From Promethearchaeota archaeon (GTDB taxonomy: Archaea > Asgardarchaeota > Thorarchaeia > Thorarchaeales > Thorarchaeaceae), in contig WJIL01000132.1 in NCBI GenBank assembly GCA_014730275.1, forward strand, positions 122,026 to 186,025: a DNA stretch of 64,000 nucleotides, written 5' to 3'. Made by a program: the position numbers and the translations under genes. This document shows, piece by piece, positions 3,753-47,011 of the stretch (within the stretch, counting starts at the first letter, position 1; every line of letters begins with the position of its first letter). The notes beneath the pieces were generated by a model that was not told where the DNA came from, ran no database searches, and saw only the letters and a program-made list of their open reading frames with translations.

Positions 3753-4853
3753 GTGATAAGGCTGGAACTTGATTCTTTACTGTACACGCTCTCTCAATCG
3801 TTCGATTTTGGTCGTCCAGTTGTATTGCCCGACTTCTTTGTGGATCACTATGTAGTTTATCCATCATACGATAGATTCGTAGATGGCTTGAACCGCTTAG
3901 CAGCTCAAGGTGGGGGGAATCTCATGGGTACCGATCAGTTCATCCGACGGGGAGGAAATGCGGTTAATACTGCTTCTGCATTATTGGCACTTGGTGTTCC
4001 ACCTTGTCTTATTGTGAAAACAAGTGAGTGGGGAAAGGCACTCATGAAAACTCTTGTTCATCCAGACCTTAAATTAGATCATGTTCATACAGACGGCTCG
4101 CTTTCACACACGGTATCAATAGAAACAACCTATGACAAACGAGATGTCAATCTAATGGTAAGCGATAGTGGGGCAGCAGCTAATTTTCAATTTAGTGACT
4201 TGACGAAGAGTGATTTTGAGTGTATCTACGCGAGCCCCCTTGTGGCGCTCCTCTGTCTGAACCACAATCGGAATGCACCTGTTCTTGCTGAAGACCTCTA
4301 TAGTGCCATTCGCGAACATTCGGATGCACTTACTTTCATGGATATGGGAGATCCCTCTAGCAATCCATCCATTGTTGAACCCCTTGTCAAACGCGTATTA
4401 CTGAAGGGACTCGTAGATATTCTGAGCGCAAATGAGAATGAAATCTGTTATTTTGCGAACAATCTTCCTTCGAATGATGTTGACTGGCTGAAAGCTAGAC
4501 ACGATCCAAACAAATGGCTGAAGGCTGCTGAATTGGTGGCTTCTAGATGTGCTATTCGGGTTGATTTGCACACCCCTTTCTACAGCGCTTCGGTCACATC
4601 CGATTCGGTCACTAGTGTGCCAGCCTTTGAGGTGGAAAGCCGAGTTGTTTGTGGGGCGGGAGATGCTTGGAATGCAGGATCCATTCTTGGAACTCTGTTA
4701 GGTCTTGATGCGAAACAGCGGTTGTTGTTGGCAAATTCAGTTGCAGCTCTTTATGTGAACTCATCCACTACTGAACATCCTTTGCTTCAGGATGTCATTT
4801 CCTTTCTTGAGAATCCTCCACCTATGCAAGAGCCAATCAGAAAAGCTACTTAA
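3753..4853 (+). CDS. PfkB-family carbohydrate/nucleoside kinase (ribokinase-like)
   Basis: N-terminal GGNAVNTASALLALG (GG motif) and C-terminal CGAGDAWNAG (GAGD anion-hole motif) are characteristic of PfkB kinases. Confidence 0.75.
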   Translation: MIRLELDSLLYTLSQSFDFGRPVVLPDFFVDHYVVYPSYDRFVDGLNRLAAQGGGNLMGTDQFIRRGGNAVNTASALLALGVPPCLIVKTSEWGKALMKTLVHPDLKLDHVHTDGSLSHTVSIETTYDKRDVNLMVSDSGAAANFQFSDLTKSDFECIYASPLVALLCLNHNRNAPVLAEDLYSAIREHSDALTFMDMGDPSSNPSIVEPLVKRVLLKGLVDILSANENEICYFANNLPSNDVDWLKARHDPNKWLKAAELVASRCAIRVDLHTPFYSASVTSDSVTSVPAFEVESRVVCGAGDAWNAGSILGTLLGLDAKQRLLLANSVAALYVNSSTTEHPLLQDVISFLENPPPMQEPIRKAT

Positions 4854-4861
4854 ACAAAGAA

Positions 4862-4895
4862 CCGGAATATAGTCAATAGTAGTCTATTCTTCCGG
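4862..4895. promoter_or_regulatory. inverted repeat (CCGGAATATAG ... CTATTCTTCCGG) between PfkB kinase and roadblock module 1
   Basis: Arms of about 10-11 bp flank a 12-bp spacer, ~20 bp upstream of the 4913 start. It is not followed by a T-tract, so it is unlikely to be a terminator. It is a possible operator. Confidence 0.3.
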
Positions 4896-4912
4896 ATGGA
4901 AGTGGAACGACT

Positions 4913-5794
4913 TTGGATTTGGATCACGTCTTTGGGAAGCTGCGATTCGATGAATCGGTCAGTGCATATTCGCTATTTACCAATGATGGTGAGCCATTCC
5001 TGTCATTCTCGATGCCCGAGACCATACTCCCGCAGCTCAAGGGAACTATGAAGGCCCATTCATCATCATTAAGAATGGTGAATGTTCTAACAAGCGCTGG
5101 TACGGTTGTTCTTTCGAGAGTTGACCCAAATTGGGTGCTTGGCGTTCTATTTGTGCCCGAAAATCCCCTCGGTGCATCGCTTCAAAGCACAAGGGATGTA
5201 GTTGAGGATTTACAAGAAACCGATCTTCCGGATCCACCTCAACCTTCTGTAGATTCTACCGAGAAAACCTCGGAGCCGGTGGGTGAAGTCTCGGAATCCG
5301 AGGAACCTCAGGATATTACGGTTCGGCACGGCTGTATTGTTCACAAAGGTGAGCAATATGGTCAAGCTACCATGAGCGATTCTGAACTACGAAAAGCCAT
5401 GACTGACCATTTCGGCAATTTAGCCTTGGATGTTCTTCTCATGGTAGATGAGAAACGGACCATATTCCAGATAGCTGAATTGCTCGACAAGCAAGTTGAC
5501 AGGATTATTCCTTTAGTTGAATGGCTTGTGCCAAGACAGGTCGTCTGGGTACAATGTCCATCAGAACAGGAGACGGGAGCTAGAGAAATTGTAGAATGCC
5601 CTGTTTTCAGCGGCGATTTCGGAAAAGCAAAGCGGGAACATCGAGAGGTTCTTGAGCTTTGTGATGGCAATCATACAGTTCAGGAAATCGCTGAAGAATT
5701 GAACCTGCAGTACTTCCAGGCTTTGCAGGCTATCGTTCCTTATCGTGGCAAGAGCGTGAAGTTCGTCCGTACGAATAGAATACAACAGAAATGA
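4913..5794 (+). CDS. roadblock/LC7 (MglB-like) domain protein with acidic linker and C-terminal winged-helix-like domain (paralog A)
   Basis: The N-terminal ~100 aa follow the roadblock pattern: a beta-strand with DG (SLFTNDGEPFL) and a late hairpin AGTVVLSRVDPNWVLGVLFVPENPLG that resembles MglB ...HALLVLVFDETAPLG. An acidic, P-rich linker follows. The C-terminal domain carries the conserved LELCDGNHTVQEIAEEL. It is a paralog of 7801-8808: both share KLRFDE near the N-terminus and CDGNHT near the C-terminus. Confidence 0.5.
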   Translation: MDLDHVFGKLRFDESVSAYSLFTNDGEPFLSFSMPETILPQLKGTMKAHSSSLRMVNVLTSAGTVVLSRVDPNWVLGVLFVPENPLGASLQSTRDVVEDLQETDLPDPPQPSVDSTEKTSEPVGEVSESEEPQDITVRHGCIVHKGEQYGQATMSDSELRKAMTDHFGNLALDVLLMVDEKRTIFQIAELLDKQVDRIIPLVEWLVPRQVVWVQCPSEQETGAREIVECPVFSGDFGKAKREHREVLELCDGNHTVQEIAEELNLQYFQALQAIVPYRGKSVKFVRTNRIQQK

Positions 5795-6312
5795 ATGAGG
5801 TTGATATTATGGGGTTGAAAGGAAGACTGGCTTGGGCCTTGAAAATTGATAAAGTTGCTAAACCACTGTTCCAATCGGTGTATAGAGAATTGATGAATCA
5901 TCTAATTCAACAATCCGAAAATGTGGATGTAATCAATCACCAATTGAAGGAAATTGGTTTTCGTGTAGGTGAACATTTGCTCATGGACTACGCGGAGAAA
6001 ATACGTGAGCATGCAGGGGAATTTCATGAATTCGCATCGACGCTTAATCTAGCCTACAAGGTTAATTCAGGCCACGATTTCTCCGATATCTGGATTAGCG
6101 ATGACAAGAATACGATTAAATTTACGGACAACAATTGCCCAATCTGTGAAGATGTTGAAATAACTGATATGCCTGGCTTGGAATACTGCAACCTCGTGAG
6201 TGGGGTATTTCAGGCAGTACTTGATCTACGCGGGTTCAAGGGTGAATCATATCAAGAGTCTTGTCAGGCTGTGGGCGATGAAACATGTATTTGGACAATC
6301 AAATCCATTTAA
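5791..6312 (+). CDS. V4R-domain protein (COG1719; TRAPP/Bet3-like fold)
   Basis: C-terminal NNCPICEDV...YCNLVSGVFQAVLDLRGFKGESYQESCQAVGDETCIWTI matches the V4R pattern CxxC ... G.l.G ... E.xC.A.GD..C.F. The start overlaps the upstream stop by 4 nt (ATGA). Confidence 0.7.
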   Translation: MNEVDIMGLKGRLAWALKIDKVAKPLFQSVYRELMNHLIQQSENVDVINHQLKEIGFRVGEHLLMDYAEKIREHAGEFHEFASTLNLAYKVNSGHDFSDIWISDDKNTIKFTDNNCPICEDVEITDMPGLEYCNLVSGVFQAVLDLRGFKGESYQESCQAVGDETCIWTIKSI

Positions 6313-6435
6313 TAAATGGAATTGTCCTTGGTGGATGATTTTCGGTTCTCTTTCATTTTACAAATAAGGCCGTATAGAATAACCCTAAATGTGTAGGTGT
6401 TGGAAGAATCTCTGTAAGCACGGAGGACCTAAATT

Positions 6436-6954
6436 TTGGGACAGAAACTTGGCATCATCATTGGTCTTGTAACAGCTTATGCAATTGTGTTTGCTATTCT
6501 TGCTTTCGGCACCTTCGTACCAGAAGATGTCATCGATTCAGTAGTAGTCACAGATTTCTTGACACGAAATGACCTTGAGCTAAAAATTGCCATTACAAGC
6601 ACCGTTCTTTTTCCAAGTGCTTTAGGCTCAACCAGCTTGGGCTCTTATCTTGGTTTCGGAGCTCAAGGTGCCAGTGTTCTCATGTTTCTGGCATGGGGTA
6701 CTGCAGGATTGGTGGCTGGTCTTGTAGCACGCGGGATTCCAGATGCGGTTATGGCATCAATTTTCGCTGTTGTTGTAGGAGCTGTTCTGAATTGGTTGCT
6801 TGTTTTCTTCATATCTCCAGGTGTTGATTTTGCCGCCATCTTTGGTACAGCTTCTCTAATCATTCTTCAGATCCTCTTAGAAGCAACAATCTACCCGATA
6901 ATTGGAGCAACTATTGGCGGTGTCTTGGGAGGAGCAATCACTCGAAAACGTTAG
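6436..6954 (+). CDS. hypothetical polytopic membrane protein
   Basis: Four or five hydrophobic helices, rich in Gly and Ala. No family recognised. Confidence 0.45.
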   Translation: MGQKLGIIIGLVTAYAIVFAILAFGTFVPEDVIDSVVVTDFLTRNDLELKIAITSTVLFPSALGSTSLGSYLGFGAQGASVLMFLAWGTAGLVAGLVARGIPDAVMASIFAVVVGAVLNWLLVFFISPGVDFAAIFGTASLIILQILLEATIYPIIGATIGGVLGGAITRKR

Positions 6955-7553
6955 GAATGGATTTCTTCTTGTTTTGGTATATCAGTATCTGAACCATGGA
7001 GAACTCGTCCACATTCTGCACACAACATAGGTTTCGATTTGTAGATGGCTCCACACTCGCATACAGTACGGATTTGCTTAGGCGGCTCAGGTTCTTCTTC
7101 AGTTACCAATCTTCCCTTGATATGGACTACAAGTGCAGCAGTTGGAACTGACAGAATTGCCGTGGGCATAGCTTGAATGAACTGAGATAAAAGAAACGAA
7201 TTTCGTTCAAGCATGTCACCAAACCACATTGACGGATTCTGCAAAAATACCGATAAAACTGACAGCACCCCGATAATCCCCCCTATCCACAAAGCGGTCC
7301 TGATAGTATTGCCTTCTGATACAGAAAAAATGCCTGCTATGATTCCAGCGATTAACCAGATGGAAATGTAGGTTATGATTACATTCGAATTCAGGATAAC
7401 CGATATCGCTGAATTGAGTGTAGCTCCTCCAGCAATAAGAAACCCGATTGTATCAAATGGTGACGGATATGCGGGAACACTTACTTGCATGAGTGCGACT
7501 GCCAAATACGATCCTAGCACAACTGAGGTGATCGCCCCCATTAGGTTTCTCAT
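6951..7553 (-). CDS. membrane protein with C-terminal zinc-ribbon
   Basis: N-terminal hydrophobic helices and a C-terminal CECGAIY...CAECGR (Cx1C...CxxC) ribbon. Convergent with 6436-6954 and overlaps it by 4 nt. Confidence 0.45.
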   Translation of the reverse strand: MRNLMGAITSVVLGSYLAVALMQVSVPAYPSPFDTIGFLIAGGATLNSAISVILNSNVIITYISIWLIAGIIAGIFSVSEGNTIRTALWIGGIIGVLSVLSVFLQNPSMWFGDMLERNSFLLSQFIQAMPTAILSVPTAALVVHIKGRLVTEEEPEPPKQIRTVCECGAIYKSKPMLCAECGRVLHGSDTDIPKQEEIHS

Positions 7554-7738
7554 TCTGTGATATCCACCTTCTCTGGTACTACCCGAGTGATTATTGCCCC
7601 CTCTTAATCTTTTGTCAGTATGACATTACCGTTTTACTGATGTTGATATCCGGTATATCACCTTTACATTGATTAGGACCGATTGAAACTGTTATCATGG
7701 CGAGGACTTGACCGCAATGCTTTTCAGATTGCCGCCGA

Positions 7739-7752
7739 TGCATTGCAATGCA
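7739..7752. promoter_or_regulatory. perfect 14-bp palindrome TGCATTGCAATGCA ~50 bp upstream of roadblock module 2
   Basis: The motif is its own reverse complement. It sits in the 247-bp intergenic region upstream of 7801. It is a candidate operator for a dimeric HTH protein. Confidence 0.3.
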
Positions 7753-7800
7753 GATCCGGGTTGATGTCTGTCCTACTGCCCCCGAAGAGGTGCACATAAA

Positions 7801-8808
7801 ATGGCTAGTGATTTAGAGCGAGCTCTATCCAAGCTTAGATTCGACGAACAGGTGCTTGGCTATTCCTTAATGACGAAGGTTGGCAGACCATTTGTTAGCT
7901 TCTCATTTCCTGATGAGCTTTTCCCACGAGTAAAGGACAGTATCGCTCTCTACGAGTCTGATTTGCGTCTCATGACTATTGATACCGAACGAGGGCTTGT
8001 CGTATTATCCCCGGTTGATAGCAACTGGATTCTTACAGTTCTCTATGAACCGGAACTGCAGCTTGGACTTGCAATAGCTAAAACAAAGAATGTGCTTCGG
8101 TTACTAGAAGGCATTGAGCTCCCCCCTCCACCTGATGAATTTGAGGAGTCCGCGGAATCTAATTTGGAGGTTTTGGAGAGTATTGCAATACAGGCAGCTT
8201 CCACGGAAACAGAACCAGCCCCGTCCGAAGCTCAACCTCAACCAGCTCCTCAGGCAGAACCTGTAGAAAAAGAACTCGAAGAAGAAGCTGAACCAGAACC
8301 TGAGCCAGAAGAGGAGCTAAAACCAGGAGATTTCAATGTTAAGCCAGATACTATACCAGAGCGTCACGATAAATACTCTCATGCATTGTCTCTAGACTCG
8401 GACTTGTACAAAGAGATGAAAGAGAAGTATCGTAATTTCGGTTTTGATGTCTTGATGCTTGTTGATGATAGAACCAGTGTCGAGGATATCGCTGATGCTA
8501 TGCTACAACCCCATGAACGAATCATGGAATTGTTGCGTTGGGCTGCCGCAAAGCGGATTGTTGATTTGCCTCGCGCAGAGAGAGCTGAAGGGGGCGAACG
8601 CACAATGGGTCGGTTTGTCAAGTGTCCCCATTACAAAGGCAAGGAATCGAAAGTTGATACAGAAGATCGGAACATAATTAGTCTCTGTGATGGGAATCAT
8701 ACACCAGAACAGATTGCTGAGGCAACTGAAGAGCCTCTCAGCAAGGTTATTCGAGTAATTGCTAAATACCGGAAAGAAGGTCTTGTCATGATTGGCAAGA
8801 CTCTGTAA
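7801..8808 (+). CDS. roadblock/LC7 (MglB-like) domain protein with long PEPEPE acidic linker and C-terminal winged-helix-like domain (paralog B)
   Basis: N-terminal KLRFDEQVLGYSLMTKVGRPFVSF...ERGLVVLSPVDSNWILTVLYEPELQLG follows the roadblock/MglB pattern. A ~90-aa Pro/Glu-rich low-complexity linker follows. The C-terminal LCDGNHTPEQIAEA is shared with 4913-5794. Confidence 0.5.
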   Translation: MASDLERALSKLRFDEQVLGYSLMTKVGRPFVSFSFPDELFPRVKDSIALYESDLRLMTIDTERGLVVLSPVDSNWILTVLYEPELQLGLAIAKTKNVLRLLEGIELPPPPDEFEESAESNLEVLESIAIQAASTETEPAPSEAQPQPAPQAEPVEKELEEEAEPEPEPEEELKPGDFNVKPDTIPERHDKYSHALSLDSDLYKEMKEKYRNFGFDVLMLVDDRTSVEDIADAMLQPHERIMELLRWAAAKRIVDLPRAERAEGGERTMGRFVKCPHYKGKESKVDTEDRNIISLCDGNHTPEQIAEATEEPLSKVIRVIAKYRKEGLVMIGKTL

Positions 8809-8837
8809 TTTACAATTAGGTTTGAGGTAATCCCAAA

Positions 8838-9314
8838 ATGGTTAGAGTCAGAAATCCCTTACTGGTAACTTTGTACTCTCGAATCGTTGACAAGGTCTTG
8901 GCCACGACCGACAGTATTGAAGAAGCTAATGATGAACTCCGAGAAGTAGGCCGAAGCATCTCAACCAATTTATATCTAAATACCGAAGTCGCTCAGAATA
9001 CAAAAGAGACTATCCAGACTAGGGAAGACGTGTCAAAGTTAGTAGAGGTAGTTTTCAGAGAGCTTTATGATAGAAGGCCCGATGAGATTGATATGGATAC
9101 CGCCCGCGGAAGCGTACGAATCACGGACGAAGAATGTGTATGGTGTCAGGATGTTCATCTTGAAGGGATGAGGGGATTTGGGTACGGTGAGATTTTCAGC
9201 GGTATTCTGGAGGCAATCTTGGAGCTCAAGGGCGTCGATGCCAAAGTCTTCCAAGAGATGTCTCGAGCAACGGGCTCTGATCGCTGTACATGGAATGTGC
9301 GTCTCGTCTGGTGA
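8838..9314 (+). CDS. V4R-domain protein (COG1719)
   Basis: ECVWCQDVHLEGMRGFGYGEIFSGILEAILELKG...SRATGSDRCTWNV shows the V4R cysteine pattern. Confidence 0.7.
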   Translation: MVRVRNPLLVTLYSRIVDKVLATTDSIEEANDELREVGRSISTNLYLNTEVAQNTKETIQTREDVSKLVEVVFRELYDRRPDEIDMDTARGSVRITDEECVWCQDVHLEGMRGFGYGEIFSGILEAILELKGVDAKVFQEMSRATGSDRCTWNVRLVW

Positions 9315-9375
9315 TGTCTTAAGTGTGGTAATCACAATAAAGCACATATGAGATGGCAGTATCACTTAGTAAGGA

Positions 9376-9927
9376 GTGCTCCCGATGTCAGATGAAGTCA
9401 TTGAATGGTGGAAAGGTCGACTTGATTCTAATGAACTCATGAAGGCCTTCTTCGCGAAAACTTGGACAAAGCTCGGTGCGAGAATTGAGGTTCTATTCCC
9501 TGATCGCGTCAGGGACCTTTACTATAGCGCTGGAAGGCTAGCAGGCTTGGAGGCACAAAGGGAGTATTTCAAAATAGGAGAACAAACCCCTCCTGGTGAT
9601 TTCAAAGGTATAATTGAATTCATCAAAATGGCCTTAGAACGTCTCATAGTGCCTTTTGGAGAGATTGAGATAGCTAAACTCTACAAGCTATTTCTCGATG
9701 AAGAAGCTATAATCGAAATCAAGGAAAACCCATACGCTTCTGGTATGGATTCAGAGGAACCAGCTTGTTATTACTTACGAGGTTTCATTGAATCAATTAT
9801 GGAATACCTTACGGACTACAATCGAATAGAGTATGAGACACTGGAGATTGAAGAAGAAATGTGTATGGCAATGGGTGATGAAGCCTGCACTTTCCATATT
9901 AAGATGAGCTATCCTCCACGAGGATAG
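9376..9927 (+). CDS. V4R-domain protein (COG1719), third paralog
   Basis: EPACYYLRGFIESIMEYL...MCMAMGDEACTFHI shows the V4R pattern (C..GD..C.F). Confidence 0.65.
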   Translation: MLPMSDEVIEWWKGRLDSNELMKAFFAKTWTKLGARIEVLFPDRVRDLYYSAGRLAGLEAQREYFKIGEQTPPGDFKGIIEFIKMALERLIVPFGEIEIAKLYKLFLDEEAIIEIKENPYASGMDSEEPACYYLRGFIESIMEYLTDYNRIEYETLEIEEEMCMAMGDEACTFHIKMSYPPRG

Positions 9928-9967: not shown

Positions 9968-10765
9968 TTGCAGATACTCCTATTGGCTACTTGGTTAAAA
10001 GCAATGAGTGTTGGAACAAGAAATAAAGGACTTCTGGCTGCGACAGTAATGGCTCTCATGATGTCGGGGCTTGCAGTCTTCTTGATTTTTACTGTTCAGA
10101 ATGGATCGACAGCTATTTCAGCTAATGAAATTAGCGAGATTGCGACCATGCAACAGGCAACCGTTGACTGTGATTTCGGTTTCTCATCGATGAAGACGGG
10201 CACATCAGTAATACTAGAAGATACCATAACCAACACTCTTGGTAGCATCATCCCGTCTCTATTGATTATTGGAACTATTTCGGTTGATGCAGGAGAAGAC
10301 AAACATGATACTCTGCGGGCTAGGATTCTCCATGAAATCGAGAATTTCCCCGGTATTCACCTTCGGGAATTGAGGCGCCACCTAGATTGTGCTATGGGTG
10401 CACTTCAATATCATCTTTCTAATTTAGAAGAAGCAGGATTGGTAGTCTCACACAGAATGGGTAACACTCGCCATCTCTTTATTGATGGTTTCACGTCCGA
10501 AGAACGGAATATGGAACTGGCAGCTTTGATTCGCAATGCAACTGTACGTTCTATTATCCAACAGTGTTTGGCTGAATCTGAAATTACACAAGCAGAACTC
10601 AGTCGAGTTCTTTCATTGGACAAGAGTTTGGTTTCATACTATGTGAGTAGTCTCTTGGATGCGGATATCGTTCAGAAGCTCAAGGTATTCGGCAGAGAAA
10701 AGCCCTTGGTTGTTAAGGAATGGGCGGTAAAAGCAATTGCCGATTTGGGCCTTGCTCTGGAGTAG
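9968..10765 (+). CDS. membrane-anchored transcriptional regulator with two winged-helix (ArsR/MarR-like) modules
   Basis: N-terminal TM helix (LLAATVMALMMSGLAVFLIF). Then HLRELRRHLDCAMGALQYHLSNLEEAGLVVSHRMGNTRHLF and ITQAELSRVLSLDKSLVSYYVSSLLDADIV, both HTH-like. Confidence 0.5.
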   Translation: MQILLLATWLKAMSVGTRNKGLLAATVMALMMSGLAVFLIFTVQNGSTAISANEISEIATMQQATVDCDFGFSSMKTGTSVILEDTITNTLGSIIPSLLIIGTISVDAGEDKHDTLRARILHEIENFPGIHLRELRRHLDCAMGALQYHLSNLEEAGLVVSHRMGNTRHLFIDGFTSEERNMELAALIRNATVRSIIQQCLAESEITQAELSRVLSLDKSLVSYYVSSLLDADIVQKLKVFGREKPLVVKEWAVKAIADLGLALE

Positions 10766-10835
10766 TATTGAGTTATATCCAATAATGACACATAGATGAT
10801 TTCAGTTAAACCACAGACGGTGGAGACGGAAGAGC

Positions 10836-11585
10836 ATGGATGAAGACACTATACTAGGAAGCGATGAAGCGGATACTGAGCTTGACTTGGATGACTTAGA
10901 GGGTGCCAATTATGCTATTAGGCTAGATAATGTATCCAGGATTTACGACCTCGATGGGCACGAGATTCAAGCAGTACAGGATGTGACCATGGAAGTTACT
11001 CCGGGTGAATTCGTTGCAATTAGCGGACCTTCAGGCTCGGGGAAAACAACCTTACTCAACATCATAGGCTGCATCGACTGTGTCTCCTCTGGCAGAGTAT
11101 ACGTGATGGATGTGCCAATAGGCGATTATGATGAGGCCTTCAGAGCCACCTTCAGGCTGACTTATACTGGCTTCATTTTCCAAAGCTACAACTTGATTTC
11201 AACGCTAACTGCACTCGAAAATGTGATGTTTCCTATGCAGTTGTCTGAGCGAAAACTCAGCACCATACGCTCTGAAGCCTCCAATCTTCTCAAGCGAGTA
11301 GGACTGTCTGAGCGCGAAGACCACCTTCCTTGGCAGATGAGCTCAGGAGAACAGCAGAGAGTAGCTATAGCTCGGGCAATGGCTAATGATCCACCTGTGA
11401 TTCTTGCGGATGAACCTACCGCGAACCTTGATGCGGAAAGTGCAACGATGGTAAGAGACTTGCTAACCGCCTTGAATCATGAAGGTAAGACAGTAGTTAC
11501 GATGACTCATGACCATCGGCTATTGTCTCTTCCTGACGCTCGTAGATATGAAATGAAAAATGGGGCGCTGAGACCGCATGAGTAG
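10836..11585 (+). CDS. ABC transporter ATP-binding protein (MacB/LolD-like)
   Basis: Walker A GPSGSGKTTLLN, signature [13 protein letters not shown] and Walker B ILADEPT. Confidence 0.9.
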   Translation: MDEDTILGSDEADTELDLDDLEGANYAIRLDNVSRIYDLDGHEIQAVQDVTMEVTPGEFVAISGPSGSGKTTLLNIIGCIDCVSSGRVYVMDVPIGDYDEAFRATFRLTYTGFIFQSYNLISTLTALENVMFPMQLSERKLSTIRSEASNLLKRVGLSEREDHLPWQMSSGEQQRVAIARAMANDPPVILADEPTANLDAESATMVRDLLTALNHEGKTVVTMTHDHRLLSLPDARRYEMKNGALRPHE

Positions 11586-13452
11586 GCAGGACTATGCATC
11601 ACAGGATCTGAAGCGGAGGCCTCTCCGTACCGCTCTTGTCATGGCAACCATGACCACGGTTGTCGCAGCCACCGTCTTCTTGTTCCTGTTTGGTAATGTG
11701 TTGCTAGATATCACCTTTTTGATAACTTCCGAAGCCTCAACCTCTTCTCTAACCGTGTTTTTTGAAGGATTCATATGGGCCTCATTGATACTTGTCCTTC
11801 TTCTTGGTGCTGTTGTAGTGACCAGTACCGTTTCACTAGAAATGAGCAGTAGACGGAAAGATATTGGATTAATGAAGTCAATTGGAACCCTAATGGATAC
11901 TGTTTTCGATCATTTCATGGCTCAGGCAATGATTCTGATAGTTAGTAGTCTTGTACTCGGATTTTCCCTTGGTACCATTTTCTACTTGGCTGGAATGATA
12001 TGGCTTGGCAGTGTCGTACCTAGTATTCAGTTTACTTTCAACTTCCCTTGGCTTCAGTTGCTGATCTTGGCACTGATTTACATTGGTGCTGGCTACTTTG
12101 CTGCCCAGAAACCAATCTATGATGCTGTACATGAGTCGCCTATTTCTGCGATGAATCCCAACGCAGCTACAACCGTTCACAACAGAGGCTTCTTTGATTC
12201 CTTTGGTTTATCTTTCAGAGTAGCAACACGAGGTGTTGGTCGAAAAATTGCAGGATCAAAGAAAACATTGGTTGCTGTTGGCTTGAGTATTGCGCTTGCA
12301 TCATTGCTCTGGGTTGGCGGCGGTGTTGTACAAACAACTACAGATGCCTATGTATCAAGAGCAATGGGGACTAATGTTGTTGCAATAGGAAATCAAGAGC
12401 TGCTAGATAGGTATTATTCTGCATATTCCTTTTCTGGTAGTACGCTGAACGATTCTTTCAGTTATTTGGATGAAGCCGATTTGATACCGAATGAATTGGT
12501 GACTGAACTTGAGAATATGAGCGGAGTTATCCAATCAGAGTCTCGGCTTGTTGATTATACTAGTGTCTCCGAGGGGTCAGCTTACATTTGGAACCCTCAA
12601 ACGAACGAGTATGAACTTATTGGCGAAGATAGAACTGGTTCTGCACTAATAATGGGCGTGGATTGGCAAAGCAGCATATCTGACTGGTACTTCGAGGGTG
12701 AAGAGGAACAGCTTTCTCTTGACGAATTCGCTGGAACTAGGAAAACTGCAATCGGTGGGAGAATGGCGAATACTCTATTTGAAGATCCTATGATTCAGAG
12801 TTTAGGTGTTGCAGGCGCATCATTCGATGTGGGGGCTATTGCCTTTGACATACTGAATGGGGGCATGGCAGCGATGATTTCTTTTTCGGAGATGCAGGAC
12901 ATTTGGGACGTGTCTGGTCCCAACCTCTTTTTGATGCAGCTTGATGAATATGATTCATCAATTCTCTCTCAAATCGAGGACATCGCTTCTGATTATGGAT
13001 TCGCTGTTCATCACCAACAAGAAACACTTGAAGATAATATCGATTATGTTGCTGGTCTTTGGAGTCTTCTACAACCCTTAGCAATAATGGCCCTAGCAAG
13101 CGCGTTCTTGAGTCTGGTGAACTACTTGCTTGTGTCTGTATTTGGCAGATTGAGAGATTATATCATCATGCGGTCTATTGGTGCAAAACCAAGTTTCATT
13201 GCTCGCACGATGATTGCCGAAGGATTGGAAATTGGCATGAAAGCAGGAATTCCTGCCATATTTGGAGCAATTCTCTTCAGCATCTACCTTCTTGTCCCAG
13301 AAGCTGCAGTTCCAACGATTCTATATGTTCCTACCTCTGTTGCAGTAATGTTACTGGCGGTGGGTCTAGTTGTAGTTCTGGCTGCTATTCCAGTATATCT
13401 CCTATTTACTTCTGAATCCCGAAATCTGAGAGTATCCGAATTTTCTATTTAG
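11578..13452 (+). CDS. ABC transporter permease, FtsX/MacB-like with large extracytoplasmic domain
   Basis: 624 aa. Two FtsX-type 4-TM blocks with large loops. Its start overlaps the ATPase gene, so the two form an operon. Confidence 0.75.
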   Translation: MSRQDYASQDLKRRPLRTALVMATMTTVVAATVFLFLFGNVLLDITFLITSEASTSSLTVFFEGFIWASLILVLLLGAVVVTSTVSLEMSSRRKDIGLMKSIGTLMDTVFDHFMAQAMILIVSSLVLGFSLGTIFYLAGMIWLGSVVPSIQFTFNFPWLQLLILALIYIGAGYFAAQKPIYDAVHESPISAMNPNAATTVHNRGFFDSFGLSFRVATRGVGRKIAGSKKTLVAVGLSIALASLLWVGGGVVQTTTDAYVSRAMGTNVVAIGNQELLDRYYSAYSFSGSTLNDSFSYLDEADLIPNELVTELENMSGVIQSESRLVDYTSVSEGSAYIWNPQTNEYELIGEDRTGSALIMGVDWQSSISDWYFEGEEEQLSLDEFAGTRKTAIGGRMANTLFEDPMIQSLGVAGASFDVGAIAFDILNGGMAAMISFSEMQDIWDVSGPNLFLMQLDEYDSSILSQIEDIASDYGFAVHHQQETLEDNIDYVAGLWSLLQPLAIMALASAFLSLVNYLLVSVFGRLRDYIIMRSIGAKPSFIARTMIAEGLEIGMKAGIPAIFGAILFSIYLLVPEAAVPTILYVPTSVAVMLLAVGLVVVLAAIPVYLLFTSESRNLRVSEFSI

Positions 13453-40979: not shown

Positions 40980-41678
40980 ATGAAAATTGTCGTCACTGGA
41001 AGCCATTCCGCGGGGAAGAGCGAGATTATTCACAGTCTGACCAATGGTGCTTGCATCAACATTGAGCGTAAAGGTACCACGATAGCCATGGATCATGGAG
41101 TAGCCGAGCTTCCTGAATTAAACGTCTTCCTCTTTGGAACACCTGGTCTGCTACGGTTTCGGACAATGAGGAAGATTCTGAGTTCCGGAGCAGACGGAAT
41201 AATATTTGTGGTGGACAGCGTTGACCCAGAGGCTGATGCTCGAGCGAAGCTTTTCTTCAGAGAGATTGCTTTCTTTCTTCCTGGTGTTCCCTGTGTTGTA
41301 GCTGCGAATAAGCAGGACCTAGAAGAAGCTAGAAGAGTGGATGAGCTTCGAGAAAGCATGAAATTCTTGGCTGGACTTCCTGTTATTCCTTGTTCTGCCA
41401 AGACAGGTAAGAATGTCGAAAACACTCTGAGGACTTTGCTTTATTTGGCTATGATGCAATGGAGTGAGGTTTTCGCAAAATTCGCGGAGTATAGCGGTGC
41501 TGATGACGGACTACAAGGTCTCATGTCTGATTTGAATATTTCTCGTGAGCAAGCAGTTGGTCACCTTCGCAGATTCGAGCTCAGGAAGTTGCTAGAAGTA
41601 GATGTTGGTGACAGGCGGTTCTTTGTGAAGGATGCTGTTATGCCGTTGTTAGAGAACCCTGTACTTGTAATGGCTTAG
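40980..41678 (+). CDS. small GTPase, MglA/Arf-like
   Basis: KIVVTGSHSAGKSEIIHSL (P-loop), FGTPGLLRF, AANKQDL, CSAKTG. C-terminal ~60-aa extension. Confidence 0.75.
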   Translation: MKIVVTGSHSAGKSEIIHSLTNGACINIERKGTTIAMDHGVAELPELNVFLFGTPGLLRFRTMRKILSSGADGIIFVVDSVDPEADARAKLFFREIAFFLPGVPCVVAANKQDLEEARRVDELRESMKFLAGLPVIPCSAKTGKNVENTLRTLLYLAMMQWSEVFAKFAEYSGADDGLQGLMSDLNISREQAVGHLRRFELRKLLEVDVGDRRFFVKDAVMPLLENPVLVMA

Positions 41679-41721
41679 TTACAAGCAGAAAGAGTCAAAA
41701 GAAGATAGAATCTGAAATTCA

Positions 41722-42588
41722 ATGGTGAGCCTCATGAGCGAAGAAGAAATGGACTTCGACCCGGTACAACTGATGGAACGGGCGAGAGCGGCTAAAGATG
41801 CCGGAGAAGAAGAAATGGCTGCTCGTGCTTTCAATACTGCCGGTAACTACTACATGAGTATTGGCGAATTTGATGAGGCTCTCAAAAGCTTCGGAGAGGC
41901 TCTCGAACTATTCAAGAGTTTAGGAGATACAGAAGGTCGAGGCGATGCCTTGTACAATCTTGGCGTAGCTCAGATGAACAATGAAGAACTGGAAGAAGCC
42001 GAGCAGACCCTCCAGTCTGCGATTGATATGTTCGAACAGGCTTCAGATGACAGCGGAACTGCAGATGCAATGTATGCACTTGCACTCACGAAGCTCGGGC
42101 TTGATGAGTTTGATGAAGCTATTAGCCTATTTAGACGAGCCAAGCGAATATACAAAGACTTGGACAATATGCAGGGTATGGCAAGCATACGCATGGATAT
42201 TGGCAACGCTCAGGCAGAACAAGAGGAATGGGACAAAGCCGAGCGAGAGTTCAAGAAAGCTCTGAAGATTTACGAGGACATCGATGACAAAGCTGGCATT
42301 GGTGATGCCCTGTCGTTGTTAGGCGATATTTCCGAGCTGCAAAATGATCAGAAGAAGGCAGCCGAGTACTTCGCAGAAGCTGCAGAGAACTACTTCGACG
42401 CAGAGTTATTCGAGATTACTCGAGAAGTCATCGAGCGGGCCGAGAGCAAGTATTGGGATATTCCAAAAGCCACTCGTCGTCGACTTAGAAAGATAACTGA
42501 TGCAATCTATGATCAGCTTCCTGAGGAAGAGGAAGATGACGATGAGGATTACGATGATGACGATTTTGGTGATATTCCCGGCATCTAA
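41722..42588 (+). CDS. TPR-repeat protein with poly-D/E C-terminal tail
   Basis: Repeating A...Y..G...A/L 34-mer units. Tail EEEDDDEDYDDDD. Confidence 0.7.
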   Translation: MVSLMSEEEMDFDPVQLMERARAAKDAGEEEMAARAFNTAGNYYMSIGEFDEALKSFGEALELFKSLGDTEGRGDALYNLGVAQMNNEELEEAEQTLQSAIDMFEQASDDSGTADAMYALALTKLGLDEFDEAISLFRRAKRIYKDLDNMQGMASIRMDIGNAQAEQEEWDKAEREFKKALKIYEDIDDKAGIGDALSLLGDISELQNDQKKAAEYFAEAAENYFDAELFEITREVIERAESKYWDIPKATRRRLRKITDAIYDQLPEEEEDDDEDYDDDDFGDIPGI

Positions 42589-42691
42589 GATTTGAGAGAT
42601 TTTCAACAAGAAACAGTAGATTGTTTCACCTAGCCTTTCGTCTTCCCCCGGCCGGTCCGGGAAAAGGCTATTTGTACTCAGGCAAATCTGA

Positions 42692-45600
42692 TTGCTTGAA
42701 GACAGGAGAATCCCCAGATTGCTCGATCGACAAAAGGCACCTCATTCATTGATTGCGATGATTCTTCTTTTGGGTACCCTTTTTCTTCCTTCGGCTTTTT
42801 CTCCTCAAACCTTGCCCGTAAGAGAGTCCAGGAATCCTGTTCAGTTCAAAATGGCGAACGGACAAGAACAGAATTACACAGCAATGCGTCGCTCCGTGTT
42901 CGTGTCCCCTGATTCAACTTCATACATTGACGAATTTTCTTACATGGCAGCCGTACCGACTAGTGTGTTCAGTCATGATGGAACGAAGTATGTATCCCCG
43001 GTGGTTCTTTCATCGAGTTCAGATTCAGAAGATTGGTTCATAGATGACTGGAAAGAGTATCTGTCTGTTGATGGTGGCCTAGAACAACTGGTGACAATCG
43101 GGGATTTTTCGATTCAGGAAAGCATGGCTTTTCGAGAGTCCTTTGGAACGGAGGTGTTTCCCCATATAGAAGGTGATTCATCAGCTGAAGTTGCGGCGCA
43201 ACTTGCGATATCAGACTGGGCTTCTTCAGATACAGTCGTCATTGGGATGGCAAATGATGATTTATCCACTCTCAACACAACATCTGGAAATTCAATTCAT
43301 TCATTGGATGGCTCAAGTCCTGCTTCCTACAACACATCTACAACAGTTCAACCCAGTAGTGGTGCATCCATCCCATTTACTCCACCAACCAATGCCGGGT
43401 GGCTATACGGTTCTTTCGATTGGAGTGGAACAAATTACTTCACGCATAAATTGATTGATCCAAATGGCAATACAGTCGATTATTCTCTTGCGCGTCAAAC
43501 TCGATATCAACGGAATCCAAGTTTCGTTGATGAATTAGTCCCACTGCATTTCTGGTTGCCTAAGACGCTAGAAGGCGAATATACGATGCAGGTTGAGATT
43601 GGATCCCCCATTTCTGCGCCTGTTTCCATGGATTGTGATATTACATACTATCCTGGGTTCTCGCAAGAAATCAATGTTCCAGAGAACGCTAAATGGCTCA
43701 ATTTGACGGCTAATTGGGACAATGCAGGGACTAACATCAACCTAGCTTTGATTGACCCTTCGGGAAAAATGGTTCAATGGGCACCTGCTGGGAGCTTGCT
43801 TTCGGGTGCTGGTCGCGATTCCATTGAAGTTCCTTATCCTAGTCCTGGTTCGTGGAAAGCGGTTGGGGCCTGGATGGATCCAAATGGCGAAACGAACAAT
43901 GTCGAATTGAGCTGGCAAATACAGCGAATGGAAACCAATCCGGACTCATATTTCGAGAGCAGTGCCAACGCTGCGGTACTGGCATCTCTTATGAATGCGC
44001 CGCTACTGTATACTGGCGAAAGAACTGTACCGACAGTTACACTGGATGCTGCTAATCGGTTAGGAGCTGAGGTAGTCATTCTTGTCGACCCTCATAACAT
44101 ACACTCAACTGAAGTAGAGTCCCAACTGGAAACCACAGGCATCCTGAGCGTTTTGGATAACTATCCTATGGTTACTGACTGGATTAAGACCCTCTCAGGA
44201 CAGAATGATGTTATTGCTACGGTACCTCAGGTTTCCAGCAATGAATTCTATCCCGCTGCTGCACTTTCCGGAGCGTTTCATGGAGCCCCAATCTTCTCAC
44301 TTTGCGGAGATGATAACCAAGTTACCACAATGGCCGAAAGCACATGGGCTCCATACAAAATAGGTCCTGAAATCGAAATCTATGTGACCAGTCGTTATTC
44401 TACAAGAACTGAGAATGGTTGGTATGACGACCGTATACCGAATATGTACACAATGCGCAAAAGTGTAGATACTTTCGAGAGTTTCCTAGATACGCGAGGT
44501 GCCTACAACTCATCAGCGGGCCAATCGACGGTATTACTGTCTCCAATCGATCTCATAAAACCGAGTTTTGACAGATCATTGCAAACCCATTTCTCACCCG
44601 GGAGAATTCCCGCAAGAAATGCTGAACTGGCTTCTGTTATGATTTCAAAAGCTATTCTCCACCGTTTCTTGTTCCGTACAGCAGAATCCTCAGATGATAC
44701 CCTGCTTTCGCTCTATGCATATACGGACGGAGCCAGCTATTTCGACAATTTCGGTAATGTTCGCAACATCTACCAAATTGAAGATACTCGTGACCCATTG
44801 CAGGACATGGGATTCAATACATTGATGCATGTTGGTGTAAACGAGGTCTTCAACAGCCTAGACACTCAGGTATCTCTATGGGCATTCAGTACCCATGGAA
44901 CTCTCACGAGATATCCCGCTGATCCTCCAGCCCGACCCAATGGTGTCGGATATTTCTCATTCCGCGATGTTGATAGTCCTTACGGATTTGAGGAAAGTGT
45001 ATCAAATCGGGAGAGTAGTGAAGATGCGGACCAACTTGTCAACCCTGTGGCCTTCACCGCAGAAAATGCTCACCACGTCATAAGAACTACCAACGATTTG
45101 TCAGGTGCAGTTGATAATATTGGATCACCTATTGTCTTTTTGACCGCTTGTTTGTTAGGCGGTTCCCAATTACCAATTCAACTGATGGAACACGGTGCTG
45201 TGGGTGTTATGGGTTCGCCGAGAACTGTCTATTTTCGAGCAGCGGGTCTGTTATCAACACTTGTCATAGAATCACTAGCAAATGGCACCGCTACTGGAGA
45301 AGCCCTTACATCTGCTCTTGATACCGTTTCTATGGACTATTCTGATCCGCTTGGATATGAGCCTGTAGACTATGCCAATCAATACATCTTGTTTGGAGAT
45401 CCCGAAATTAATCTCTATGAGCCAGATTCAACGCCTCGGATTACCTCCAGCGATCCTACTTCTAACACCTATGGAACTCATACGCCGGCTCGTGGTGTCG
45501 CTTCTATTGCGGCTCTAGGCAGTACAGATTACTTGCCCAGCAGCCTCGAAACTGCTGATATTGGGTACGATTTCTACTCTGATTCTAATAGCTCCGATTT

Positions 45601-46552
45601 CATGTGGTTGCTCAATCTACGCCGAGCTGTTCTGATAGAGCCTGCTTCTTTGTCGTTATTCAATGATTGGATGACCCAGTATGCTCAAGACTTCCAGGAA
45701 TATGTACAAGATGGCGGTTCACTAATCATCATGGGCATAAATACAAATGCAACTTGGCTACCGTGGACTTTCTCATTTTCTGATGGTTTTGCTAGCTCGC
45801 AGTTCTCCATCACTGAGGAACAGCATCCCCTGATAACCACACCTAACTCTATTGACGAGAACATCACCTGCCTAGGTGCTTTTACGAGCTACGGATCGAA
45901 TTTTACTCCACTTGCTGGTGTAGATGGTGCCCCTATCCTCCTTGCTGGCATATCCGGGTTCGGGAAAGTGGCTCTTACGACATTAGATCCTACTGGAAAC
46001 TCCAAAGATGCATTCATCGAAAATTCTGCGCTGTGGTATCGCGAACCGTCGTTGATGCTAACAGAAATAGCCCTATCTCAGGAAATCATTTGGGGCGGTG
46101 ACCGGGTCGACATCTCAATTTCTATTACTGATAGGAAAGGTAACCCTATTTCAGATGCTGATATTCAAGCTAGGATTGATTCTACCACCGTAGATGTAGG
46201 ACATGTAGGAGATGGACTTTACGAAATAACGCTAGGTGAAGAATGGACTCGTAATAGAACCGGCTACTATGATTTAGTCTTGACCGCTCGGAAACTTGGT
46301 TATGATACTCTTAGCCTTCATTTCGACGACTACCTCTACATTCGTCCTTCCCCTTGGCTACCAATCACCATTGTTGGAATCGCTGTTCTTGTGATATTGG
46401 CTGTTTGGTCTTACCGGAAACGTCGAAAGGGAGAAAAAATTGTTGATTTCGGTGGGAGTACCTATTCTCCGCCAAAAAATCATAAAACTAAGAAAGAAAA
46501 GGAAGAAGAGGACGAGGAATTTGACCCCAAGGAGTTCTTTGGGGTTGAGTAA
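42692..46552 (+). CDS. giant cell-surface protein (1286 aa) with signal peptide, C-terminal TM anchor and possible clan-CD cysteine peptidase domain
   Basis: N-terminal hydrophobic leader. C-terminal LPITIVGIAVLVILAVW then KRRKGEK and an acidic cytoplasmic tail. Internal LWAFSTHGT ... IVFLTACLLGG resembles the His/Cys dyad context of caspase-like (C11/C25) peptidases. Confidence 0.55.
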   Translation: MLEDRRIPRLLDRQKAPHSLIAMILLLGTLFLPSAFSPQTLPVRESRNPVQFKMANGQEQNYTAMRRSVFVSPDSTSYIDEFSYMAAVPTSVFSHDGTKYVSPVVLSSSSDSEDWFIDDWKEYLSVDGGLEQLVTIGDFSIQESMAFRESFGTEVFPHIEGDSSAEVAAQLAISDWASSDTVVIGMANDDLSTLNTTSGNSIHSLDGSSPASYNTSTTVQPSSGASIPFTPPTNAGWLYGSFDWSGTNYFTHKLIDPNGNTVDYSLARQTRYQRNPSFVDELVPLHFWLPKTLEGEYTMQVEIGSPISAPVSMDCDITYYPGFSQEINVPENAKWLNLTANWDNAGTNINLALIDPSGKMVQWAPAGSLLSGAGRDSIEVPYPSPGSWKAVGAWMDPNGETNNVELSWQIQRMETNPDSYFESSANAAVLASLMNAPLLYTGERTVPTVTLDAANRLGAEVVILVDPHNIHSTEVESQLETTGILSVLDNYPMVTDWIKTLSGQNDVIATVPQVSSNEFYPAAALSGAFHGAPIFSLCGDDNQVTTMAESTWAPYKIGPEIEIYVTSRYSTRTENGWYDDRIPNMYTMRKSVDTFESFLDTRGAYNSSAGQSTVLLSPIDLIKPSFDRSLQTHFSPGRIPARNAELASVMISKAILHRFLFRTAESSDDTLLSLYAYTDGASYFDNFGNVRNIYQIEDTRDPLQDMGFNTLMHVGVNEVFNSLDTQVSLWAFSTHGTLTRYPADPPARPNGVGYFSFRDVDSPYGFEESVSNRESSEDADQLVNPVAFTAENAHHVIRTTNDLSGAVDNIGSPIVFLTACLLGGSQLPIQLMEHGAVGVMGSPRTVYFRAAGLLSTLVIESLANGTATGEALTSALDTVSMDYSDPLGYEPVDYANQYILFGDPEINLYEPDSTPRITSSDPTSNTYGTHTPARGVASIAALGSTDYLPSSLETADIGYDFYSDSNSSDFMWLLNLRRAVLIEPASLSLFNDWMTQYAQDFQEYVQDGGSLIIMGINTNATWLPWTFSFSDGFASSQFSITEEQHPLITTPNSIDENITCLGAFTSYGSNFTPLAGVDGAPILLAGISGFGKVALTTLDPTGNSKDAFIENSALWYREPSLMLTEIALSQEIIWGGDRVDISISITDRKGNPISDADIQARIDSTTVDVGHVGDGLYEITLGEEWTRNRTGYYDLVLTARKLGYDTLSLHFDDYLYIRPSPWLPITIVGIAVLVILAVWSYRKRRKGEKIVDFGGSTYSPPKNHKTKKEKEEEDEEFDPKEFFGVE

Positions 46553-46648
46553 CGTGCTAAATATGACCCCTCTTTAATCATAGCAAGATTTTATAGACCG
46601 TGGAATCTTCTATTCTTAGCGCTGATATATAACAGAGGTAAGCCAACA

Positions 46649-47011
46649 TTGTCAAGCCGCGTTGATAGAATCAATAACGCCATAAAGGATTTCGAGACTA
46701 CGCCAGGAATTCAAGGAGCTGCCCTTGTATCACTTGATGGTCTCATGATATCAGCTGCACTTCCCGAGAGTGAACAGGAACGAGTTGCGGCGATAAGTGC
46801 TGCCATGCTTTCCCTAGGTGAAAAAGCCACACGGGAACTAGATCGTGGAAATCTGATGGAGATTTATGTGAAAGGTGACAAAGGTTACACTTTGATGACG
46901 TCAGTGGGCGATAGTGCTCTATTACTTGTTCTAGCTAAGGCTGATGCCCAACTTGGACTCATCTTTGTAGATATGCAACGAATGGCTGAAAGCCTTGCTG
47001 ACGTGCTGTAG
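46649..47011 (+). CDS. roadblock/LC7 (MglB-like) domain protein, stand-alone
   Basis: IQGAALVSLDGLMISAALPESEQERVAAISAAMLSLG...GDSALLLVLAKADAQLGLIFVDM is a canonical roadblock. TTG start. Confidence 0.8.
   Translation: MSSRVDRINNAIKDFETTPGIQGAALVSLDGLMISAALPESEQERVAAISAAMLSLGEKATRELDRGNLMEIYVKGDKGYTLMTSVGDSALLLVLAKADAQLGLIFVDMQRMAESLADVL

Follow-up and report, generated by a model that had tools for sequence, protein, structure and literature searches.

The 64,000-nucleotide stretch analysed here (the window), from contig WJIL01000132.1 of a Promethearchaeota archaeon of the family Thorarchaeaceae, contains two paralogous operons. In each, a gene for a protein with a roadblock domain and tandem winged helices is followed by a gene for a TRAPPC3-like protein, and in the second operon also by a gene for a stand-alone V4R-domain protein. 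The pairing is found in more than one Asgard class, relatives of its first partner lie in or beside operons of small GTPase genes, and the system is probably a small-GTPase regulatory platform. Below, A1 and A2 are the roadblock–winged-helix genes, B1 and B2 the TRAPPC3-like genes, C2 the V4R gene, and L-numbers denote related loci in other genomes or contigs. The genes of the two modules, with that immediately upstream, are as follows (ORF, open reading frame):

3753..4853, + strand: upstream sugar-kinase-like gene of the PfkB family (Pfam PfkB, E = 1e-12)
4913..5794, + strand: A1, NPRL2/3-like, 293 amino acids, TTG start (ORF list)
5791..6312, + strand: B1, TRAPPC3/Bet3 family within the V4R superfamily, 173 amino acids (Pfam TRAPP, 38.2 bits)
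6436..6954, + strand: TM1, small multi-pass membrane protein without a Pfam family (ORF)
6951..7553, − strand: TM2, membrane protein, divergent from A2 (ORF)
7801..8808, + strand: A2, paralogue of A1, 335 amino acids, same architecture with a longer linker (alignment)
8838..9314, + strand: B2, Thor-TRAPPC3 orthologue, 158 amino acids (Pfam TRAPP, 35.0 bits)
9376..9927, + strand: C2, stand-alone V4R-domain protein, 183 amino acids (Pfam V4R, 44.8 bits)

A sequence-only reading of this DNA had described A1, B1, A2, B2 and C2 as duplicated, translationally coupled modules, and all five ORFs are present in the ORF list at the coordinates it gave, as is the ATGA overlap of A1 and B1 (5791–5794). 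B2 has its own Shine-Dalgarno sequence, GAGGT, 9 nt upstream. The mechanically assigned GTG start of C2 at 9376 overlaps an AGGAG, and the ATG at 9385 (MSDEVIEWW...), which sits behind that AGGAG, is probably the real start. The proposed paralogy extends to both partners: A1 and A2 align end to end with 31% identity (E = 4e-55), and B1 and B2 with 21% identity (E = 2e-23), C2 being related to B1 and B2 only remotely. That A and B are both duplicated suggests that the pair was copied as a unit, and the two paralogous operons are older than the Thorarchaeota radiation.

A1 was modelled with AlphaFold2 from 68 homologues (mean predicted local distance difference test score, pLDDT, 82), and the model has the three parts expected from the sequence, namely an N-terminal domain (residues 1–101), a disordered stretch (111–134) and two winged-helix units (142–290). 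The linker at about 103–136 is acidic and rich in Pro and Glu, and the tandem winged-helix C-terminal domain (137–293) carries an LCDG..T..EIA motif, which the alignment places in both paralogues as LCDGNHT..QIAE, as had been stated. Elements of the N-terminal domain (helix 3–11, strands 16–23 and 28–32, helix 36–48, strands 55–59, 64–69 and 74–80, and helix 86–101; pLDDT about 77–92) follow the order alpha-beta-beta-alpha-beta-beta-beta-alpha around a five-stranded sheet, which is the roadblock fold. Foldseek searches of the PDB agree with the original roadblock assignment, matching this domain with probability 1.0 to Asgard roadblock proteins (9jue, 7f8m), LAMTOR2/3, MglB and MglC (E = 1e-6 to 6e-4; target-normalised template-modelling score 0.57–0.75).

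The C-terminal domain had been described as winged-helix-like, and the two units of the model and a 20-bit Pfam HTH_47 match of A2 bear this out. When this domain was modelled alone (pLDDT 89) and compared with 350,542 chains, the top nine matches were all NPRL2 or NPRL3, with both winged-helix units covered (E = 2e-3 to 4e-2); the best match of full-length A1 was likewise NPRL2, within GATOR1 (9o5a_H; E = 1e-6, 352 aligned columns). A1 and A2 have a longin/roadblock-superfamily N-terminal domain followed by an NPRL-type winged-helix C-terminal domain, and at the level of the predicted fold they appear to share the co-linear architecture of NPRL2 and NPRL3. The label "MglB-like" is apt for the fold of the N-terminal domain, but the closer whole-protein analogue in Foldseek is NPRL2/NPRL3.

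Some homologues at JGI carry the COG name "Roadblock/LC7/MglB family". Distant members P0229, P0233, P0236-8 and P0254 have N-termini that are longin-like by sequence pattern, the longin order being beta-beta-alpha-beta-beta-beta-alpha-alpha, and P0233 has a weak Fuz_longin_1 match. Weak matches to DUF742 (PF05331) occur in 41 of the 68 A-family members (best E = 0.0023), all below the Pfam threshold; A1 scores 14.2 bits versus a gathering score of 27. An apparent fusion with the C-terminal domain of A1, the 494-residue ENA protein P0088, was rejected as an A–B fusion: its N-terminal part of about 365 residues is unrelated to A1 (P-loop-like, GPPGCGKS) and is joined to the winged-helix half of an A1 orthologue, and it is probably a chimeric assembly and not a real fusion.

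The two paralogues also differ from each other. Conservation profiles (48 orthologues for A2) show A2 to be far more conserved than A1, its roadblock domain (7801–8112) being almost invariant in about 48 Thorarchaeota species, whereas the N-terminal domain of A1 (4913–5215) is much more variable. The longins NPRL2, FLCN and SMCR8, which act as GTPase-activating proteins (GAPs), carry a GP motif before beta2 together with an arginine finger (PMC12290439). In A1 and A2 the signature sought was an arginine corresponding to NPRL2 R78, accompanied by the neighbouring GP motif and restricted to a single paralogue (motif as defined in PMC12290439). Both paralogues have a G-x-P ahead of beta2 (G26-x-P28 in A1, G-R-P in A2), and A1 orthologues keep an arginine, R69, in the beta4-beta5 loop, at whose equivalent position A2 has a conserved proline. 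The resulting parallel with the GAP longins is suggestive and positional, drawn from predicted secondary structure.

Assignment of the downstream genes to the TRAPP/V4R families is upheld by Pfam, the scores listed above comparing with gathering thresholds of 27 bits for TRAPP (PF04051) and 31 bits for V4R (PF02830). Judged by sequence, the crystallised Thor-TRAPPC3 has its orthologue in B2 (E = 3e-69 to 7yh2 across the full length of B2, and 1e-68 to 7yh3), and B1 is a paralogue (E = 6.5e-24 to 7yh3). B1 also matches TRAPPC3 chains that have no Thorarchaeota label (E = 5e-10 to 1e-7), the best being 6aq3, trafficking protein particle complex subunit 3. Thor-TRAPPC3 is a homodimer that most closely resembles the eukaryotic TRAPPC3/C6 pair, with a four-cysteine Zn site like that of V4R and PoxR and with internal cavities (Tran et al., 2024; PMC10933270). 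These cavities resemble the palmitate-binding pocket of TRAPPC3; ligand binding was proposed and ligand transport speculated upon; the protein was studied in isolation, without discussion of its gene neighbours, and a Heimdall longin–TRAPPC3 fusion was reported in the same work (PMC10933270).

The CxxC ... C.A.GD..C pattern previously noted in the downstream proteins is present, with its cysteines in 96–100% of orthologues (C116, C119, C133, C158 and C166 of B1 are conserved at 98–100%, and the three cysteines of C2 are invariant), but it is incomplete in the B2 of the window, which has Gly at the third Zn-ligand position. This residue, Gly117 (GFGYGEIF), is Cys in 47 of 49 orthologues and in both crystallised Thor-TRAPPC3 proteins (GFGYCEIF).

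The nearest homologues of A1 are in Candidatus Thorarchaeota metagenome-assembled genomes (MAGs). We compared 64 related MAG loci, of which nearly all with a given taxon are labelled Thorarchaeota. The order PfkB–A1–B1–TM1–TM2(−)–A2–B2–C2–HTH–ABC is kept in essentially every Thorarchaeota locus that is long enough, with A1 identities of 42–73%, and the order of the A and B genes is conserved in about 50–60 Thorarchaeota species. Median gaps over about 50 species are 7.5 nt between A1 and B1 and 24 nt between A2 and B2, and C2 follows B2 in 46 loci and in L066 and L067. We downgraded this synteny as proof of coupling after checking the upstream flanking genes, which are also largely syntenic, so that the order within Thorarchaeota could be inertia and is weak evidence alone. 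The coupling claimed for the gene pair finds its support outside the block, where the pair recurs in Ranarchaeia and other metagenomic lineages:

L066, L067 and L068 (unassigned metagenomic contigs): an A2-type gene, then B, then C2
L069 (Ranarchaeia): two A-like genes followed by an orthologue of B1 (46% identity; E = 4.5e-55)
L070 (Ranarchaeia): an A-like gene, then a TRAPP protein gene after a 2-nt gap
L078 (metagenome): a longin-type A-like gene, then a B1 orthologue (47% identity, E = 1e-56)

In the non-syntenic L066 lineage the A2 orthologue has 42% identity. Distant A-like proteins recovered by profile search are from Asgard archaea (the named sources being Ranarchaeia, Helarchaeota and Freyrarchaeia) and are encoded in contexts unrelated to the Thorarchaeota block. 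They combine a roadblock- or longin-like N-terminal domain with one to three winged helices and end, as A1 and A2 do, in a PxFxG...ILxLCDGxxTxxEIA...PYF unit. The recurrence of the pair across Asgard classes, in varied contexts and with two types of N-terminal domain, speaks for a functional unit, as does the co-duplication. At L069 (5345–6960), tandem A-like genes encoding 207 and 319 amino acids precede just one B1 orthologue, an alternative route to two roadblock/longin–winged-helix subunits per TRAPPC3-like gene.

Small GTPases are encoded in the window at 25915, 35149, 40980 and 54536, as had been listed, but the roadblock part of the supposed roadblock–GTPase fusion at 35149 was not detected: only an Arf-like domain, at residues 122–253, matches. 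The gene at 40980 is the first of a four-gene operon (40980..47011, + strand), the candidate client operon, identified from Pfam matches:

40980–41678, + strand: Arf/MglA-like small GTPase
41722–42588, + strand: TPR protein
42692–46552, + strand: 1286-residue membrane-anchored protein, weakly Peptidase_C25-like in one region and hydrophobic in a segment at its C terminus
46649–47011, + strand: Roadblock/LC7 protein

For its GTPase, the nearest chains are 8ouk and 8oul ("Arf GTPase"), followed by MglA and Rab1. In L066, A2-B2-C2 divergently adjoins an orthologue of this operon (L066 1315–7618, − strand), a cluster of genes for a GTPase, a TPR protein, a 1256-residue protein and a Robl_LC7 protein; identities to the window are 55.6% for the GTPase, 37% for the TPR protein, 40% over 1200 residues for the large protein and 30% for the roadblock protein. 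In Helarchaeota, an A-like gene lies within an operon together with small-GTPase genes, two at L071 and three at L080, the genes being 13–64 nt apart. The Helarchaeota relative has 347 residues, with a longin-like N-terminal domain and winged helices, and its operon lies between aminoacyl-tRNA synthetase genes (L071 5001–7167, L080 3433–6440); the A-like proteins of the two loci fall in different 90%-identity clusters. Both associations support the suspected link to small GTPases, and among the GTPases of this genome that at 40980 is the best client candidate, as a lead and not as proof.

We propose that the A proteins and the B/C proteins form a roadblock dimer plus Bet3-like platform that regulates small GTPases, possibly with a lipid or ligand input, and we judge this to have an even chance of being right. 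A1 and A2 would be NPRL2/NPRL3-like adaptors whose roadblock domain is of the small-GTPase-binding kind seen in MglB, Ragulator and GATOR1, each adaptor gene being tightly coupled to one or two genes for putative Zn-binding Bet3-family proteins, B1 in the first operon and B2 plus C2 in the second. The products would assemble as a hetero-oligomeric platform. Its roadblock domains would dimerise, most likely as A1:A2, in the manner of NPRL2:NPRL3, LAMTOR2:3 and Bet5:Trs23, and Bet3-like dimers would pack on the roadblock dimer, much like the Bet3-family subunits on either side of the longin pair in the TRAPP core. Such a platform may act on one or more Arf/MglA/Rag-like GTPases, the best candidate being that at 40980, either by setting their nucleotide state, as a GAP or a guanine nucleotide exchange factor (GEF), or by controlling where they localise, and the Bet3/V4R cavities may add a lipid or small-ligand input. 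A fully specified version is, taken as a whole, quite unlikely. It would have one membrane-associated A1-A2-B1-B2-C2 hetero-oligomer with an A1:A2 core, B1 on one side and B2/C2 on the other, in which A1 R69 would be the arginine finger of a GAP for the 40980 GTPase; this would be a prokaryotic complex in which the plans of the TRAPP core and of GATOR1 are united, near a common precursor of the two.

The sequence-only reading had placed a strong inverted repeat before the first module and a perfect palindrome before the second, both as signs of regulated expression. The first, at 4862–4895 (CCGGAAtatag...ctattcTTCCGG), proved to be imperfect and has no equivalent in the PfkB–A1 spacers of some 60 related loci, among them L001, the closest. 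The 14-bp palindrome TGCATTGCAATGCA at 7739–7752 exists and is perfect, but such palindromes are at chance level in the window (5 observed versus 4.0 expected from shuffles) and this one is not conserved in 50 related loci. Palindromes were rejected as regulatory sites on both counts, chance frequency and lack of conservation. A PfkB-like gene precedes A1 in 62 loci. The spacer between the two has a median length of 45 nt and contains nothing but a Shine-Dalgarno-like motif, which makes co-transcription of A1 with the PfkB-like gene probable; A1-B1 as a pair may be co-transcribed with it.

Upstream of A2, we found an 18-nt element, ACC[AG]CAAT[GC]CTTTTCAGA, at 7711..7728 (+ strand), 81–88 nt before the A2 start codon. 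With at most 4 mismatches it is present in 51/51 A2 upstream regions (50 related loci and the window), and wherever the start codon of A2 is evident, its distance from that codon is constant. Related sequence totalling 1.01 Mb holds 42 occurrences with at most 1 mismatch, of which 41 lie upstream of A2 and the other is at the truncated end of L042; because it is found essentially upstream of A2 alone, a generic promoter consensus was rejected. Scanning the window gave the A2 site as the only close match (1 mismatch) and 5 matches at 3 or fewer mismatches versus 1.66 expected, a marginal excess. The element is not palindromic, and a structured RNA leader was also rejected, as RNAalifold on 30 leaders predicts no pairs. 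It is a candidate gene-specific promoter or operator of the A2-B2-C2 operon.

In many loci, though not in this window, the 3′ half of the element forms an inverted repeat (CTTTTCAGA-N4-6-TCTGAAAAG). Downstream of C2, at 9968–13452 (+ strand), lie genes for a double winged helix-turn-helix (wHTH) protein, then an ABC ATPase, then an FtsX-type permease. The double-wHTH protein (9968–10765) has N-terminal hydrophobic segments and two wHTH domains of the HVO_0163 type and is a candidate alternative binder of the 18-nt element. The position of the wHTH and ABC ATPase genes 3′ of C2 is kept across Thorarchaeota.

A number of results weigh against the small-GTPase platform. Synteny extends upstream of the modules, with L13e kept in 59/59, DUF72 in 40/49 and the 826–2229 ORF in 39/40 eligible loci, and two of the more distant A-like genes, in Freyrarchaeia (L073/L074) and in L075/L076, lack both TRAPP and GTPase neighbours. 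No GTPase gene lies inside the Thorarchaeota block: those of the window are 16–45 kb away, with 16 kb between C2 and the nearest and 31 kb to the best candidate (40980). In L066, the adjacency to a GTPase operon is that of one lineage, and the A-like proteins of Helarchaeota are only distantly related, their matches to the Thorarchaeota profile (E about 5e-4) coming mainly from the winged-helix domains.

Family searches add to this. A1 and A2 gave no match to Pfam Robl_LC7 (PF03259) at E up to 1, and this family is absent among those listed for the 68 members at E up to 10; nor did any of the 68 match Pfam NPR2 (PF06218) or NPR3. With a helix at its start and just one at its end, the N-terminal domain of A1 follows the roadblock and not the longin order. 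No NPRL chain was found by a PDB search with the A-family profile, and a hidden Markov model (HMM) search of 1.84 billion representatives gave 49 matches, with no eukaryotic protein and none of those examined NPRL2-like. By hhalign against human NPRL2, the second winged helix (WH2) alone aligns, to NPRL2 172–235 at E = 0.055; the matches listed in the NPRL2 homologue search were vertebrate sequences only, so that a diverse NPRL2 profile was not available. Finally, the WH2 of A1 and A2 is basic (median pI 9.3–9.6), which together with the conserved DNA element upstream of A2 makes a DNA-binding role possible. As the whole proteins are strongly acidic, autoregulation through the winged-helix domain, raised as a possibility in the sequence-only reading, is neither favoured nor disfavoured.

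Such a role is the basis of an unlikely alternative, in which the genes encode a split ligand- or redox-sensing transcription regulator, with the A1/A2 winged helices binding DNA and the V4R/TRAPP-fold proteins sensing, as a multi-gene analogue of MsvR (wHTH plus V4R) or of the V4R-containing activators PoxR and DmpR. Besides the basic WH2 and the class-wide, gene-specific element at its fixed distance from A2, this explanation can draw on recurrent weak Pfam matches of the C-terminal domain to HTH_47, Sigma70_r4, TrmB and ArsR, on more distant HMM matches, which are archaeal multi-wHTH proteins, and on weak matches of B1 and C2 to the V4R part of NCBIfam MsvR (21–23 bits versus a cut-off of 220). 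The cavities and PoxR-like Zn site also make Thor-TRAPPC3 a likely ligand binder (PMC10933270). However, the best structural neighbours of the C-terminal domain are the C-terminal domains of NPRL2/3, which are not known DNA binders, the recognition-helix positions (YFQALQ..PY) are hydrophobic and not basic, the whole A proteins are strongly acidic (net charge −18 and −27), and relatives are embedded in GTPase operons. The 18-nt element, non-palindromic and present once per genome region, could equally be bound by another protein, such as that encoded at 9968–10765.

Quite unlikely, in our view, is a GTPase-independent scaffold for lipids or hydrophobic ligands at the membrane, in which the Bet3/V4R proteins would carry the ligand and A1/A2 adapt them to TM1/TM2. 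The speculation of Tran et al. on ligand transport through the Thor-TRAPPC3 cavities, and their point that some roadblock/longin proteins work without GTPases (PMC10933270), fit such a scaffold. TM1 and TM2 fit it too, since they stand between the modules at the same position in essentially all Thorarchaeota loci, with the orientation of TM2 also kept, and at L081 the gene for a multi-pass membrane protein lies immediately before an A-like gene. Homologues of TM1/TM2 were nonetheless not found by phmmer beside A-like genes outside Thorarchaeota, the recurrent non-TRAPP neighbours of the A family are GTPase genes, and no ligand is known. TM2 has a zinc-ribbon-like CxxC...CxxC in its C-terminal tail, and a protein with a TM2-like tail, a resemblance by eye only, is encoded beside an A-like gene at L065.

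That A and B form no functional unit, and are neighbours only through an inherited Thorarchaeota syntenic block, is very improbable: the flanking order counted above and the constant position of the PfkB, HTH and ABC genes across loci suit this explanation, but the pair recurs in at least 4 unrelated contexts outside the block, A1 and B1 have a 4-nt overlap or a few-nt gap in most species, and the A and B partners were duplicated together.

Asgard genomes encode dozens of small GTPases along with roadblock, longin and TRAPP-like proteins, and these regulators have not been matched to clients. Genome layout has been of little help in this matching (Tran et al., 2024; PMC10933270). The present locus is an entry point, being a conserved, duplicated pair with independent genomic ties to specific GTPases, including a named candidate, that at 40980. 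Should the products form a complex, Bet3-family and roadblock/longin-family subunits would have cooperated before eukaryotes, and GATOR1-type and TRAPP-type assemblies may share a building plan.

The system had been put forward as undescribed, which is too strong, as the B2 orthologue has two crystal structures (PMC10933270) and a longin plus NPRL2-type family was already reported by Liu et al. This "NPRL2-like" family, with a longin-type N-terminal domain and an NPRL2-type C-terminal domain, is described as being "in most Thor MAGs" (bioRxiv 10.1101/2020.10.19.343400). It is very probably the A family. TRAPP is unmentioned in the passage that describes it (bioRxiv 10.1101/2020.10.19.343400). 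In the searchable literature we found no description of the duplicated operonic pairing of NPRL2/3-like and TRAPPC3-like genes, nor of its recurrence across Asgard classes or its ties to particular GTPases. The parts were known separately and the system is not categorically new; the pairing is its novel aspect. As the proteins are small and soluble and one has already been crystallised, the hypothesis is directly testable, and the A–B operons offer an experimentally tractable candidate for an archaeal GTPase-regulator complex.

Among known systems, MsvR, an archaeal redox-sensitive regulator with wHTH and V4R domains, and the V4R sensor domains of PoxR/DmpR are comparable in that a winged helix goes together with a Cys-rich V4R-fold module; here, in contrast to MsvR, winged helix and V4R fold belong to different polypeptides, the former is accompanied by a roadblock domain, and the MsvR score is far below its cut-off. 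Streptomyces conservons consist of a sensor kinase (CvnA), a roadblock protein (CvnB), a DUF742 protein (CvnC) and a GTPase (CvnD). The A family similarly associates a roadblock domain with a DUF742-like wHTH, through weak matches below threshold, but its domains are fused and the Thorarchaeota operons have no kinase or GTPase. In the MglA/MglB/MglC polarity module of Myxococcus and Thermus, MglB and MglC have the roadblock fold that is seen in the N-terminal domain of A1 and A2, and the operon at 40980–47011 pairs an Arf/MglA-like GTPase with a Robl_LC7 protein. MglB, however, is a single-domain protein usually encoded beside mglA, whereas A1 and A2 add a linker and two winged helices and stand beside TRAPPC3-like genes, with no GTPase in the same Thorarchaeota operon.

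NPRL2 and NPRL3 (Npr2 and Npr3 in yeast) are subunits of GATOR1/SEACIT, the GAP for RagA/B (Gtr1). A1 and A2 resemble them in the co-linear arrangement of a roadblock/longin-superfamily N-terminal domain and a winged-helix-containing C-terminal domain, and in being two differentiated paralogues; a further parallel, suggestive and positional, is that A1 has an arginine in the beta4-beta5 loop and a G-x-P whereas A2 lacks the arginine. They differ in that sequence homology is not detectable, that the N-terminal domain of A1 has the roadblock and not the longin order, that a disordered acidic linker replaces the TINI/INT insert, and that their partner genes are TRAPPC3-like, a family absent from GATOR1. 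A gene for a DEPDC5-like GATOR1 partner was not seen, in an analysis that made no search aimed at DEPDC5.

Thor-TRAPPC3 (7yh2/7yh3), solved by Tran, Akil, Senju and Robinson (2024), is represented here by its orthologue B2, which differs by Gly117 in place of the third Zn-ligand Cys. Cysteines of the Thor protein bind Zn in a V4R-like way, at a site occupied by a hydrogen bond in TRAPPC3 (Tran et al., 2024; PMC10933270). B1 and B2, as members of the Bet3/TRAPPC3 family, are encoded beside roadblock/longin-superfamily proteins. In the TRAPP core, a GEF for Rab1/Ypt1, Bet3/TRAPPC3, Trs31 and Trs33 flank the longin pair Bet5/Trs23. A1 and A2 have winged helices that are absent from Bet5/Trs23, and no Trs20-like subunit was identified, but in gene content the two roadblock and three Bet3/V4R paralogues mirror a longin pair flanked by Bet3-family dimers.

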